Source: an uncultured Candidatus Saccharibacteria bacterium (lineage in GTDB: Bacteria; Patescibacteriota; Saccharimonadia; Saccharimonadales; JAUPVS01). Taken from it: a stretch of 64,000 nt of DNA. The stretch lies in assembly GCA_964627095.1 (NCBI GenBank), contig CAZVKH010000001.1, positions 8,451 through 72,450 of the forward strand, written 5' to 3'. Under the pieces are notes generated by a model. The model worked only from the letters and a program-made list of their open reading frames with translations, did not search any database and had not been told where the DNA came from. Shown here one piece after another: positions 9,553-57,287 of this stretch. The first letter of the stretch is position 1. Each line of letters begins with the position of its first letter. The position numbers and the translations under genes are program-made.

Positions 9553-9572
9553 AGAATTGGAAGCGACTGCCT

Positions 9573-9690
9573 GGCGGCACATTTCGTCGCGGGCTCGGTG
9601 CCAGCACCTGCGCGCGCTCCTCATGAGCGCACCTTCGACTACTGTCTGCTGCGCAGCCAAGTCGAAGAACCGGCGTCTTGCTCACTGGCA
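9573..9690. other. tRNA-adjacent conserved structured element, copy C (divergent; candidate ncRNA/cis element)
   Basis: Shares GGC-GCACAT…GCTCGG-[hairpin]-CCTGCGC…TTCGA with copies A and B. The hairpin arms GGTGC/GCACC covary with GGAAT/ATTCC. It lies between the terminator of tRNA-Pro and the promoter of the YkgJ-like gene. Confidence 0.4.
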
Positions 9691-9692
9691 AA

Positions 9693-9728
9693 GAAAAAGA
9701 GCCATCCTTATGGATGACTCATTTTCTT
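9693..9728. terminator. Bidirectional rho-independent terminator (A-run, GAGCCATCC-TTAT-GGATGACTC, T-run) 3' of tRNA-Pro
   Basis: 9-bp stem with one mismatch, flanked by AAAGAAAAA and ATTTTCTTT. Confidence 0.6.
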
Positions 9729-9805
9729 TGGTCGGGGTGAAAGGACTCGAACCTTCGACCTCACGGTCCCAAACCGCGCGCGCTAGCCAACTGCGCCACA
9801 CCCCG
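9729..9805 (-). tRNA. tRNA-Pro (anticodon TGG)
   Basis: Acceptor CGGGGTG/CACCCCG, D arm GCGC-AGTTGGCTA-GCGC, anticodon stem CGCGG/CCGTG with loop TTTGGGA, T arm GAAGG-TTCGAGT-CCTTT, CCA encoded. Confidence 0.85.
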
Positions 9806-26750: not shown

Positions 26751-26792
26751 ATACATATTATAACATAATAGAATGAGTTTTACGATGCCACT

Positions 26793-26890
26793 GGGGCAAC
26801 GCACATCTACGGCCTTGCTCGGAATGCATTCCTGCGCATGGCCTTGATGACCGAACCCCGGCTGCGCCGTTTGGGTTCTCGGCGCGTGCT
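26793..26890. other. tRNA-adjacent conserved structured element, copy A (candidate ncRNA/cis element)
   Basis: About 75 nt nearly identical to 53732..53806. Nested helices CATC/GATG, GGCC/GGCC, GGAAT-GC-ATTCC. Lies between the tRNA-Lys terminator and the leaderless 25242..26750 gene. Confidence 0.5.
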
Positions 26891-26891
26891 C

Positions 26892-26928
26892 CATGAAAAA
26901 AGCCGAACACAAGGTTCGACTGTTTTCA
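26892..26928. terminator. Bidirectional terminator hairpin (CATGAAAAAAGCCGAAC-ACAAG-GTTCGACTGTTTTCATG) 3' of tRNA-Lys
   Basis: About 17-bp imperfect stem containing A/T tracts. Confidence 0.55.
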
Positions 26929-27005
26929 TGGAGGGCCCACTGGGACTCGAACCCAGGACACCCTGCTTAAAAGGCAGGTGCTCTAACCGGCTGAGCTATG
27001 GGCCC
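26929..27005 (-). tRNA. tRNA-Lys (anticodon TTT)
   Basis: Acceptor GGGCCCA/TGGGCCC, D arm GCTC-AGCCGGTTA-GAGC, anticodon stem CCTGC/GCAGG with loop CTTTTAA, T arm CTGGG-TTCGAGT-CCCAG, CCA encoded. Promoter TTGACT-17-TAATGT lies upstream. Confidence 0.9.
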
Positions 27006-51854: not shown

Positions 51855-51887
51855 ACTACTTTCATAGTCCTGCTTGGCTATTAATAT

Positions 51888-51899
51888 TGCAAGCATGAG
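51888..51899 (-). promoter_or_regulatory. Extended -35 motif CTCATGCTTGCA for the 51039..51854 gene (overlaps the ATG of the divergent thioredoxin gene)
   Basis: -35 TTGCAA, 17 nt, -10 GACTAT, then 9 nt to the ATG. Confidence 0.45.
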
Positions 51900-52407
51900 C
51901 ATAATAGTTTTAGGCTATACTTATAGGGTGAATAAAAAACTTTTGTTGGCCATTGCCGTAATAATCGTCGTCATAGGTGCTGGTGTTATTTACTTGCTAA
52001 CCAGTAGTGAGCCAGAAAAAGCCATGGAAACAGTTACTGATCAGTCGACAACCACGTCTACTAGCCCGACCACGCCCCCTCCAGTTACTGACAATTCAAA
52101 ACCCGGCGCCTACATTGACTACACCAGCTCGGCAATTTCTCAGACTTCGGGCACAAAACTACTGTTCTTTCATGCGCCGTGGTGCCCCCAATGTCGCGAT
52201 CTCGAAGACAGCATTAAGCAGGATGGCGTGCCAGACAGTGTGACAATTATTAAGGTCGACTACGACAGCAACCAGGCCCTCCGCCAAAAGTATGGCGTAA
52301 CCCTACAGACGACCGTGGTTAAAATTGATGATAACGGTAACTTGATAGATAAGTTTGTCGCCTATCAAGAGCCTAGCCTGGCGGCTGTAAAGCAACGACT
52401 GTTGTAA
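51895..52407 (+). CDS. Membrane-anchored thioredoxin-like protein (TlpA/ResA-like)
   Basis: WCPQC active site. N-terminal TM anchor. The ORF-track start at 51874 is TTG. ATG at 51895 preferred. Confidence 0.6.
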   Translation: MSIIVLGYTYRVNKKLLLAIAVIIVVIGAGVIYLLTSSEPEKAMETVTDQSTTTSTSPTTPPPVTDNSKPGAYIDYTSSAISQTSGTKLLFFHAPWCPQCRDLEDSIKQDGVPDSVTIIKVDYDSNQALRQKYGVTLQTTVVKIDDNGNLIDKFVAYQEPSLAAVKQRLL

Positions 52408-53147
52408 TGGCGCTATTGATTCTTTCATTTATCGCCGGTGTACTCACCATTGCGGCACCCTGCGTACTACCGTTGTTGCCGGTTATTGTCGGCGGTTCAT
52501 TGGTAGAGAATGACGAAGAAAAATCTACCCGTCAATGGTTGCGACCGTTAGTTATCGCTCTAAGTTTAGCCCTGTCGGTGGTTAGCTTTACGCTGCTTAT
52601 TAAAGCCACGACCGTTTTACTGGGAGTGCCACAAATTGTCTGGCAAGTTGTTTCGGGACTGATTGTGATTGCCCTAGGTATTAATTACGTCTGGCCTAAA
52701 GCTTGGGAAGTTCTGTCGGCCCGGTCTGGGTTATTTACCACTTCTAACGCCGCTTTGGGTAAGGCCTATAAACACAAAGGCCTGTGGGGAACCGTCTTAA
52801 TTGGCGTGGCGCTGGGTCCAGTCTTTAGTAGTTGTAGCCCAACTTACGCTCTGATTGTGGCGACGATTCTACCGGTTTCATTTGCGCAGGGTCTGATTTA
52901 CCTAATTGCTTATGCCTTGGGTATGAGCATCACCCTTTTACTAATTGCCTACCTGGGTCAGGTTTTCTTGAGCAAATTGCGTTGGTTGAGCAACCCCAAC
53001 GGCTGGTTTAAGAAATTTATTGGGATTCTTTTTATTACAGTTGGCATCTGTGTACTGTTTGGCGTCGACAAAAAAATCCAGGCCTACGTGCTTGAAAAAG
53101 GCTGGTACGACCCAATTAGCAATATCGAGAGGCGCCTCAGTAACTAG
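52407..53147 (+). CDS. ccdA: Cytochrome c-type biogenesis / thiol-disulfide transporter CcdA (DsbD family)
   Basis: Six TM helices, conserved Cys in TM1 (IAAPCVLPLLP) and TM4. Confidence 0.75.
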   Translation: MALLILSFIAGVLTIAAPCVLPLLPVIVGGSLVENDEEKSTRQWLRPLVIALSLALSVVSFTLLIKATTVLLGVPQIVWQVVSGLIVIALGINYVWPKAWEVLSARSGLFTTSNAALGKAYKHKGLWGTVLIGVALGPVFSSCSPTYALIVATILPVSFAQGLIYLIAYALGMSITLLLIAYLGQVFLSKLRWLSNPNGWFKKFIGILFITVGICVLFGVDKKIQAYVLEKGWYDPISNIERRLSN

Positions 53148-53181: not shown

Positions 53182-53715
53182 ATGTCAACTTTTGAACAAG
53201 AACGTCGTTCCCAGATGATCGATATTGCTACCTACCGGCAGATTAAGGAAATCGGCAAAGGCTTGGTGACTTTGTCGGGCGTGGCGTTTTCGGAAAAGCC
53301 CGACTATGACCTTGACCTTACTATAAGCCGCATCACCGACGAAACTTTTGGCGTATTCCCACAAATGGGTTACAAAGTTCGCGTGGCAAGCAAACAAACA
53401 CCGGAGGCAAACCACGAAAACCTATTAATTACCGTCAAAGGTTTTGGAGTAGTCGATAGCGAAGGTGAGCTACTCTACAGACGCAAAGTCGGGATAACAG
53501 TTATCGACCAAGAAGTTAAATATTCGTGGGTAGACCTTTTACTACCGCGTGATGGCAAAACACCAGAGAGAGCTCAGCCACAGAGTCAACTAGAGGCTGG
53601 CATCCGCGAACACTTTGAAGCATGGGAGCATGAAATCAGTGGACGACAATTTTACCTCGACCCGGAAAGCGCCCAAATGCTGATGGCCGAAATTCAGGAA
53701 ATCGCCGAGCTCTAA
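53182..53715 (+). CDS. Hypothetical protein (177 aa)
   Basis: No recognised domain. Its stop is followed directly by conserved element copy B. Confidence 0.45.
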   Translation: MSTFEQERRSQMIDIATYRQIKEIGKGLVTLSGVAFSEKPDYDLDLTISRITDETFGVFPQMGYKVRVASKQTPEANHENLLITVKGFGVVDSEGELLYRRKVGITVIDQEVKYSWVDLLLPRDGKTPERAQPQSQLEAGIREHFEAWEHEISGRQFYLDPESAQMLMAEIQEIAEL

Positions 53716-53731
53716 GGCTTTTGGCGGGGCA

Positions 53732-53830
53732 GGGCAACGCACATCTGCAGCCATGCTCGGAATATATTCCTGCGCGTGGCTTTGATGACCGAACCTGGGC
53801 TACGCCCGACGGTTCAAGTCTTCTCTGTGA
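53732..53830. other. tRNA-adjacent conserved structured element, copy B (candidate ncRNA/cis element)
   Basis: About 75 nt nearly identical to copy A. Helix 2 covaries (AGCCA/TGGCT versus GGCC/GGCC). Palindrome GGAATATATTCC. Confidence 0.5.
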
Positions 53831-53833
53831 CCA

Positions 53834-53868
53834 AGAAAAAAGACCCTTCTTGTGAAGAGTCTCTTTTC
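53834..53868. terminator. Bidirectional rho-independent terminator (A-run, GACCCTTC-TTGT-GAAGAGTC, T-run) 3' of tRNA-fMet
   Basis: 8-bp stem, AAGAAAAAA upstream, TCTTTTCTT downstream. Confidence 0.6.
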
Positions 53869-53943
53869 TTGGTAGCGGGGGCAGGACTCGAACCTGCGAC
53901 CTCGTGGTTATGAGCCACGCGAGCTGCCACTGCTCCACCCCGC
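53869..53943 (-). tRNA. Initiator tRNA-fMet (anticodon CAT)
   Basis: 5' CGCGGGGTGGAGCAG identical to E. coli tRNA-fMet. C1 is unpaired with T72. Anticodon loop CTCATAA. CCA encoded. Confidence 0.85.
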
Positions 53944-54024
53944 GTCGAGTTGAGCAAGCTATAGCATACCAGATGAAAGCTACTTATACAACATCGGTGG
54001 GAAATGTGGTAGAGTATCTTCACT

Positions 54025-55034: not shown

Positions 55035-55111
55035 GGCGGCGTAGCTCAGTTGGTTAGAGCACAGGACTCATAAGCCTGGGGTCACAAGTTCAAATCTTGT
55101 CGCCGCTACCA
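55035..55111 (+). tRNA. Elongator tRNA-Met (anticodon CAT)
   Basis: Closely resembles E. coli elongator tRNA-Met (…GTTGGTTAGAGCAC…CTCATAA…GGGGTCACAAGTTCAAATC…). CCA encoded. One A:G mismatch at 31:39. Confidence 0.75.
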
Positions 55112-57211: not shown

Positions 57212-57287
57212 GGGGGTGTAGCTCATCGGTCAGAGCAGGCGGCTCATAACCGCTTGGTAGATGGTTCAACTCCATCCACCCCCACCA
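57212..57287 (+). tRNA. tRNA-Ile2 (anticodon CAT, lysidine-modified type)
   Basis: Anticodon arm GGCGG-CTCATAA-CCGCT-TGGTA closely matches E. coli tRNA-Ile2 (GGCGA-CTCATAA-TCGCT-TGGTC). tilS is present in the window. Confidence 0.7.

Follow-up and report, generated by a model that had tools for sequence, protein, structure and literature searches.

A hairpin-forming non-coding module beside Saccharibacteria tRNA genes, with its core inside a split copy of the tRNA 3′ end

The 75-nt repeat found beside tRNA genes in the window (the whole stretch of DNA analysed here, 64,000 nucleotides from an uncultured Candidatus Saccharibacteria bacterium) is, as judged from sequence comparison, the conserved, hairpin-forming distal end of a non-coding module of ∼130–170 nt located next to tRNA genes. 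The repeat is not free-standing: its core lies inside a partial direct copy of the 3′ third of the neighbouring tRNA. This split-tRNA anatomy recurs at five tRNA types in many genomes, compensatory changes have preserved the stem of the core hairpin, copies from one genome are most closely related to each other even when they lie at different tRNAs, and sites without the module exist. We propose, at roughly even probability, that the module is a miniature, non-coding, non-autonomous element that targets the tRNA T-loop; the 75-nt repeat is probably its structured boundary and recombination site. The module appears to be a kind of gene-less tRNA-targeting element not described before, and a full-text literature search yielded no description of such an element.

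Two near-identical copies lie on the + strand at 26794–26868 (copy A) and 53732–53806 (copy B), with 87% identity over 75 nt, as originally predicted. A 32-nt probe with up to three mismatches allowed matches at these two places only and finds no match in any of 100 shuffles, and the covariance model scores of the two copies (Table 1) correspond to E∼1e-21. The same model recovers a decayed third copy (C) on the + strand at 9567–9639 (28.7 bits, E=6e-6), and the element is carried by three of the eight tRNA genes of the 64-kb window. Copies A and B are both located ∼65 nt upstream of a long hairpin, which overlaps a tRNA gene of the minus strand at its 3′ end, tRNA-Lys for copy A and tRNA-Met for copy B; copy C is convergent with the minus-strand tRNA-Pro. 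The placement claimed for copy B is borne out as well, since it starts 17 nt past the TAA (53713–53715) of the 53182–53715 gene and its terminator hairpin overlaps the 3′ end of the convergent tRNA-Met. Copy A is located upstream of a divergent gene for a MATCAP-like peptidase and copy C upstream of a gene for a CxxCxxCC protein. The similarity between A and B ends at ∼75 nt, as had been noted, but the flanks are not unrelated to anything: each copies the 3′ part of its own tRNA. The left flank is a degenerate reverse-complement copy of the 3′ end of that tRNA and the right flank continues the same tRNA from CGAACC. The left arms of both copies are eroded, with 8-nt exact runs and small deletions (13/18 with gaps allowed). 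Arm identity among the window copies is 72% and core identity 80%, values that do not support a core more constrained than the arm. A small protein gene was also considered and, on inspection, rejected: open reading frames cross the element on both strands, but A and B resemble each other as nucleotide sequences, with a similarity that goes beyond any shared frame and on into the tRNA.

Table 1. Features of the three module copies in the window and of their partner tRNA genes.
Feature	Position	Strand	Remarks
Copy B left arm, degenerate reverse complement of the tRNA-Met 3′ end; displaced tRNA nt ∼59–76 and start of old trailer	53721..53733	+	TTGG..CGGGG.CAGG against TTGGTAGCGGGGGCAGG; 8-nt exact run
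Copy B core	53734..53789	+	87.6 bits, covariation
Copy B core block 1, GCAACGCACATCT	53734–53746	+	
Copy B covarying bulged hairpin	53747–53781	+	
Copy B core block 2, TTGATGAC	53782–53789	+	
Copy B right arm CGAACCTG (reverse complement of tRNA nt 57–50) and hairpin P3 (AACC/GGTT, GGGC/GCCC)	53790..53816	+	
Bidirectional terminator-like extended palindrome, common to copy B and tRNA-Met	53830..53873	.	fold z=−5.6 with element; contains the reverse complement of the tRNA-Met CCA
Intact tRNA-Met (CAU), initiator-like, C1.U72 mismatch	53870..53944	−	mismatch read from sequence
Copy A left arm GCCACTGGG, degenerate copy of the tRNA-Lys 3′ end (GGCCCACTGGG)	26787..26795	+	
Copy A core: block 1, hairpin (26809–26843), block 2	26796..26851	+	83.3 bits
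Copy A right arm CGAACCC and P3 hairpin	26852..26878	+	
Copy A bidirectional terminator CCATGAAAAAAGCCGAAC..GTTCGACTGTTTTCATGG	26891..26931	.	terminator-like on both strands
Intact tRNA-Lys (UUU)	26929..27005	−	
Copy C: decayed core (9567–9639); right arm CACCTTCGAC and P3 partner GTCGAAG (9630–9667)	9567..9667	+	
Intact tRNA-Pro (UGG), partner of copy C	9729..9805	−	terminator ∼9690–9731

The anatomy of the module was established from the window copies and 15 strong copies from other Saccharibacteria contigs (compared loci are labelled L006, L009 and so on, the window copies A, B and C). A partial direct copy of tRNA nt ∼44–76 contains the core, which separates G57 from A58 in the T-loop of that copy. 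Along the + strand of the window (antisense to the tRNA), the parts follow in the order left arm, core, right arm, loop and inverted arm copy, and last the bidirectional terminator and the tRNA. The left flank corresponds to tRNA nt 58/59–76, read as the reverse complement from the CCA end inward, with exact runs of 19 nt in L016, 18 nt in L023a, L024b and L027, and 16 nt in L009, L015 and L020. The right flank restarts at position 20 of the tRNA reverse complement (CGAACC) and continues for 6–14 nt, from nt 57 back toward nt 44, with 1–3 target nucleotides skipped at the insertion site between the arms. An inverted copy of the right arm forms a second hairpin, which is followed by a small extra hairpin in the tRNA-Asn subgroup. 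In well-preserved copies the core reads AA(A)CGCACATCT, bulged hairpin, TTGATGAC. The module is found at tRNA-Lys, tRNA-Met, tRNA-Pro, tRNA-Asn and tRNA-Arg, and the arms match the adjacent tRNA specifically in every well-preserved copy. No copy has an open reading frame between the tRNA and the displaced fragment, or a gene between the terminator and the core, and the sole conserved neighbour of the module across genomes is the tRNA.

The terminators of copies A and B are extended palindromes that include the tRNA's own CCA (CCATGAAAAA..hairpin..TTTTTCATGG), and CCA-containing terminator palindromes are likewise present in L016, L023 and L027; hence the tail can pair with the tRNA 3′ end and the hairpin is bidirectional. 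Nucleotides 58–76 of the tRNA-Met next to copy B, together with its terminator, would be a replacement brought in by the module. In the same tRNA positions 1 and 72 are unpaired, with C1.U72 in place of the C1.A72 usual in bacterial initiators, and two more tRNA-Met genes are present in the window at 55035–55111 and 57212–57287, both on the + strand.

The structure of the core was assessed in an alignment of 17 copies against 500 shuffles. Standard pairs occupy 94.6% of the cells of the proposed pairs, 9 of the 13 core hairpin pairs have changed on both sides, and this covariation was reached by none of the 500 shuffles; sliding the partners out of register abolishes it. Such covariation is not required by a double-stranded attachment site. 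Both clamping blocks are kept in L009 and L033, where the hairpin between them is wholly different. The perfectly palindromic tip described for copies A and B (GGAATGCATTCC and GGAATATATTCC, respectively) is real in this window but does not extend to other genomes, where loops are non-palindromic, for example GGAGTAAACTCC and GGAGCAAGCTCC; the palindromic tip is genome-specific and common to A and B although they lie at different tRNAs. The strand on which the hairpin folds is indicated differently by two tests. On the + strand the core hairpin has 22 G.U cells versus 6 A.C cells, 12 of the 22 wobbles coming from a single column, a U.G kept in 12/17 copies. Folding energies of the core plus the next 45 nt (P3/P4) favour the other strand, which is lower in 14/17 copies (p=0.0014). 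Known RNA families do not account for the structure: only tRNAs pass the gathering threshold of Rfam release 15 in the window, and a permissive Rfam scan of the A and B loci gave nothing credible over the element. A hammerhead or box C/D motif, suggested by UGAUGA...GAA, was dismissed on inspection of the sequence, which lacks the required stem II or D box.

Species-representative genomes and metagenome contigs were scanned for homologues with the two invariant blocks as query. In both scans true copies came from Saccharibacteria only, at 50–90 bits, and chance matches in other phyla scored 14–21 bits. Strong copies were obtained in L006–L010, L015, L016, L018, L020, L022, L023, L024 (two), L027 and L030. 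The weaker matches are separate decayed copies, including a tandem second copy in L023 and relics in L033 and L036; copies C, L023b, L018b and L033 are decayed older copies. The prediction of a real, conserved, structured and tRNA-linked element is thus upheld by homologues in other Saccharibacteria and by the covarying stem. The cores group by genome and not by tRNA type. Copies A (Lys) and B (Met) are mutual nearest neighbours at 88% identity, as are L024a and L024b at 92%, and L015 (Lys) and L023a (Met) are each 92% identical to L024a (Asn). The arms behave differently from the cores in that they follow the local tRNA. The arm and second-hairpin region of copy C is homologous to the tRNA-Pro module of L027, and in each of the two the arm and its inverted partner follow the T-stem of their own tRNA (CTTCG here, CTCCG in L027). 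Both the extra direct and the inverted tRNA copy track the local tRNA. Copies are dispersed, with three in 64 kb. A carrier was sought in two scans of viral contigs, which gave chance-level matches only (13–17 bits), and by BLAST against phage and plasmid collections, where nothing matched the core.

Several loci bear on how the module came to lie where it does. In L009 and L020, 120 nt or more beyond the left arm are homologous to the conserved non-coding end of a large-serine-recombinase island, and the same island end directly abuts an intact tRNA-Asn in L020 and L050. These junctions, as far as sequence comparison can tell, show the displaced end to have been a genuine tRNA 3′ end at one time, and hence the ∼150 nt that separate it from the tRNA would have arrived later. 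Alternatively, the island could have integrated into the fragment as a pseudo-site. Two tandem modules are present in L023. The order in L024 is tRNA, cargo, module, cargo, module, where the arm nearer the tRNA matches exactly, at 18/18 positions, and the farther one, decayed, at 16/18. Module-free tRNA-Asn sites occur in L033 and L040, which belong to another lineage. As a sign of recombinational activity, a relic site differs between near-identical strains by a 97-nt block bounded by CGAAC repeats (L033/L038 400–800 versus L036/L039/L037, with the same SmpB protein), the upstream flank differing too; L037 is a recombinant with its breakpoint inside the core hairpin loop. Among the SmpB-anchored tRNA-Asn loci we saw empty sites, island-occupied sites and the rearranging relic, and no isogenic pair of filled and empty sites. 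A search for presence/absence polymorphism by way of the sigma-factor neighbour returned a single close homologue, on a broken 1.4-kb contig. In the fetched flanks no recombinase gene lies in or beside any copy, and the neighbours have no recombinase domain. Kilobase cargo blocks in L008, L018, L020, L022 and L024 leave 7–9-nt tRNA-end stubs beside the module terminator; this cargo is a separate phenomenon, the stubs being as expected for integration into the acceptor stem.

Thus we propose that the module is inserted between G57 and A58 of the T-loop of Saccharibacteria tRNA genes, or, in equivalent wording, directly after the CCA with an 18–19-nt duplication of nt 58–76. In the direction of the tRNA the resulting order would be tRNA nt 1–57, a replacement for 58–76, the terminator, one or two small hairpins (one of them formed with the T-loop region in inverted copy), a copy of tRNA nt 44/52–57, the core and the original 58–76. 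The tRNA would be kept intact and its old 3′ end displaced ∼150 nt downstream, where it would decay. We infer that it moves, or once moved, as miniature integrative elements without autonomy do. A recombinase provided in trans would act at GGTTCG|A, a T-loop sequence of universal conservation, and the core, with its two invariant blocks clamping the hairpin, would be the recombination site, recognised as a folded single strand as in the integron attC or the CTX-phage attP. An attachment-site or target-duplication model accounts for the repeat of nt 58–76 only, and leaves the extra direct copy of nt 44–57 and the inverted copy of nt 44–60 unaccounted for. It also speaks against the insertion account that one family would need tRNA-specific arms at five tRNA types.

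As an alternative, rather unlikely in our estimate, the + strand of the window would hold a small-RNA gene that converges on the tRNA and is antisense to its 3′ end. It would comprise a 16–19-nt 5′ seed reaching from the CCA to the T-loop, a body formed by the core hairpin, P3 and P4, and a Rho-independent terminator. The RNA would base-pair with the tRNA, with the tRNA precursor or with 3′ tRNA fragments, for instance to titrate them or to control processing. Every copy does have a hairpin and T-run at its end on the + strand, the complementarity to the adjacent tRNA is perfect over 16–19 nt in many genomes although the tRNA-Asn stems differ between genomes, and the excess of G.U over A.C cells with a retained U.G fits transcription of this strand; but more than half of those wobbles come from the one column, the folding energies point to the opposite strand, and the + strand terminator hairpin also terminates the tRNA strand. 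No conserved promoter was found, nor a promoter-like site upstream of copies A or B, and an island end or terminator directly borders the left arm in L009, L020, L023a and L027, where no room is left for one. Small-RNA seeds are normally the best conserved part of the molecule, but the presumed seed is the least conserved part of the window copies, with its short exact runs and its indels. No Rfam family matches, and insertion explains the origin of the arms. The independent small-RNA gene of the original prediction therefore survives only as a lesser candidate, weakened by the missing conserved promoter and the contradictory strand tests. Its other form, a small RNA derived from the 3′-UTR of the 53182–53715 gene, drew on the 3′-UTR position of copy B behind a + strand gene and does not hold up. 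A search of 5.8 billion proteins gave only one homologue (64% identity) of the 177-amino-acid product of that gene; at the locus of the homologue another gene follows 42 nt downstream and the element is absent, so that a conserved 3′-UTR of this gene is rejected; elsewhere the only constant neighbour is the tRNA.

The copies could also be inert scars, that is, att-site arms left by integrase-carrying islands or prophages in the T-loop after deletion of the interior, with a core that has no present function. The tRNA genes concerned are integration hot spots, serine-recombinase islands and cargo are found at the same tRNAs, and an intact tRNA with a displaced fragment is the signature that genomic islands leave. 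Older copies decay, and arm and core identities in the window are similar. We nevertheless judge scars to be quite unlikely: independent deletions would not give one gene-less architecture of ∼150 nt at five tRNA types in more than 12 genomes, with no gene between terminator and core in any copy, a hairpin maintained by compensatory changes, and two copies of one genome, at different tRNAs, that are 88% identical and share a genome-specific hairpin tip. The earlier dismissal of an att site is not supported. Copies A and B are indeed not the two ends (attL and attR) of one 27-kb island, since housekeeping DNA fills the interval and the arms of each copy are specific to its own tRNA, but each copy alone shows the signature of insertion at a tRNA. 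The geometry would, moreover, suit a guide-type element whose RNA or folded strand pairs through its two arms with the tRNA gene on either side of position 58 and keeps A58 (up to U60) out of the pairing, at the base of the core hairpin, where a trans-acting enzyme would cut or recombine to give homing into T-loops. The 16–19-nt arm, clamped hairpin, 6–14-nt arm and 1–3 skipped nucleotides fit this arrangement, as does the specificity of the arms for the adjacent tRNA; but an origin of the arms as flanks derived from the target explains them equally well, the flanks examined contained no associated protein gene, and the evidence from the + and − strands conflicts. We regard guidance of this kind as very improbable. 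Only a slim chance likewise attaches to a self-targeting, gene-less mobile element whose own transcript or folded strand would guide the insertion of a new module at position 58 and so rebuild the tRNA end. To our knowledge, guide-directed homing into the conserved T-loop is a mechanism described for no bacterial element.

Among known systems, the T-loop-targeting module that we favour works most like the tRNA-targeting genomic islands. The sublocations of integration within tRNA genes reportedly fall into classes, one of them a T-loop class (Williams, in 2002, is said to have drawn them up). As in such islands, the module would regenerate an intact tRNA, a displaced direct copy of the 3′ end marks the far boundary, the crossover would lie in the T-loop, and successive insertions would be stacked by the tRNA. 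In the Islander account, a regenerated tRNA and a displaced fragment mark the endpoints of genomic islands (Islander, PMC4383910); the module copies have the intact tRNA and the direct fragment, exact over 16–19 nt and degenerate in copies A and B, whereas an integrase or recombinase inside the element was found in no copy. Unlike these islands, the module is only ∼150 nt, an order of magnitude smaller, carries no integrase and no cargo, has the extra direct copy of nt 44–57 and the inverted T-loop copy, uses a covarying hairpin as its boundary and occurs as one family at five tRNA types. Tycheposons of Prochlorococcus reportedly form tRNA-adjacent tandem arrays with partial tRNA repeats and integrase-less cargo units, and the module arrays are similarly tandem beside the tRNA and accompanied by partial tRNA repeats. 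Tycheposons are, however, said to be of kilobase scale with dedicated tyrosine recombinases, and we know of no structured core splitting the T-loop in them.

The attC sites of integrons and the attP(+) of CTX phage are folded single-strand sites in which structure is kept while sequence varies, and it is on this basis that the module is compared with them. Its structure, too, is kept by compensatory change, in a bulged hairpin clamped by short conserved blocks, and the L024 array resembles a series of integron cassettes. The attC boxes RYYYAAC / GTTRRRY are only approximated, P3 reading ACCGAAC...GTTCGAG with one mismatch per box; the target is the tRNA T-loop and not attI or dif, and the cargo blocks beside the module appear to belong to separate serine-recombinase islands. 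No integron integrase was found in the fetched flanks, where nothing linked the module to IntI or Xer. With MITEs and with REP/BIME, Correia, RUP and ERIC elements the module shares its short, non-coding, multi-copy and hairpin-forming nature and its position after genes by terminators, and as in MITEs its copies are more alike within a genome than orthologous copies are between genomes. In contrast to MITEs, it lacks clear inverted repeats at its termini (in inverted orientation the core blocks AACGCACATC and GATGACCGAA match at 6/10 positions only) and any short duplication around the core, the only duplication being that of the 18–19-nt tRNA end, which ends exactly at the CCA and flanks the whole module; it is also strictly tied to tRNA 3′ ends and restores an essential gene. 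In retroviruses and LTR elements the primer-binding site is an 18-nt complement of the last 18 tRNA nucleotides, with a stop at m1A58. The 18-nt complement of the tRNA end in the module also ends at position 58/59, but the module is without reverse transcriptase, LTRs or polypurine tract and its complement matches the tRNA gene next door; the only reverse transcriptase met in the compared loci is a type VI retron in separate cargo. Target-matching arms are a feature that the module has in common with guide RNA systems (H/ACA-type pockets, the IS110 bridge RNA and the TnpB/IscB omega RNA). No effector gene is located near the 17 copies, and the guides of bridge RNAs are far shorter than the module arms.

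Genes for tRNAs are classic landing sites of genomic islands, and the known elements carry an integrase and are kilobases long. The module is ∼150 nt and gene-less, is found in the T-loops of at least five tRNA species, restores both the tRNA and its terminator and keeps a covarying hairpin. These features point to one of three possibilities: a "minimal integrative element" mobilised in trans, a recombination site that is used as a folded strand and does not belong to the integron or Xer systems, or an RNA antisense to the 3′ ends of tRNAs. The genomes of Saccharibacteria are tiny and contain little non-coding DNA. A structured non-coding module that recurs in them is therefore of note by itself, and it may help to explain how the tRNA-linked variable regions of these organisms are built up. 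For annotation, a displaced tRNA end together with the core can serve as a marker of former tRNA boundaries and of junctions with islands. Should the arms act as guides, their T-loop-directed specificity would be of biotechnological interest.

A number of further observations were made at the compared loci. The copy in L006 (2100–2530) is the only one on the same strand as its nearest tRNAs (Ala and Ile), and ahead of its left arm stands a second copy of the 5′ leader of tRNA-Ile (TTTAACTTATTTTGATGGGG), suggestive of an inversion through the palindrome of the acceptor stem. In L008 (6373–6470) a partial tRNA-Met copy beside a second tRNA-Met gene is interrupted in the anticodon loop and not in the T-loop, and the insert is a hairpin related to the core (21.7 bits); the sequence suggests a sister family that would use the other 7-nt loop. 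Partial tRNA copies beside intact tRNAs, their T-arm split by unrelated inserts, are present in L018 (3330–3440) and L008 (4090–4200), and from these sequences split tRNA ends seem to be general in these genomes, with several insert types. Large-serine-recombinase islands occupy the extreme 3′ end of tRNA-Asn in L050/L051/L058 (5280–10459) and L020 (1075–4718) and share a conserved non-coding end of ∼250 nt and tRNA stubs of 7–9 nt. Their genes include those for an HTH protein, DUF2178, thioredoxin, a DsbD fusion and glutaredoxin, and the L020 island has a CPBP protease and an IS3 transposase. In the window, thioredoxin and DsbD genes (51874–53147) lie just beyond the displaced fragment of copy B. 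The cargo beside the L022 module encodes a type VI retron reverse transcriptase (1735–2571, − strand; PADLOC RT_VI, 154.7 bits), preceded by a long non-coding stretch (∼600 nt upstream) that could hold an msr/msd RNA. In L032 (300–420) an orthologous tRNA-Met is joined at the anticodon loop to high-GC foreign DNA, which is either a chimeric assembly or an island junction. Contig L059 ends (5280) exactly at the 3′ end of tRNA-Asn and its sister L058 runs on into the island; together with L032, this end points to strain variability at tRNA ends.
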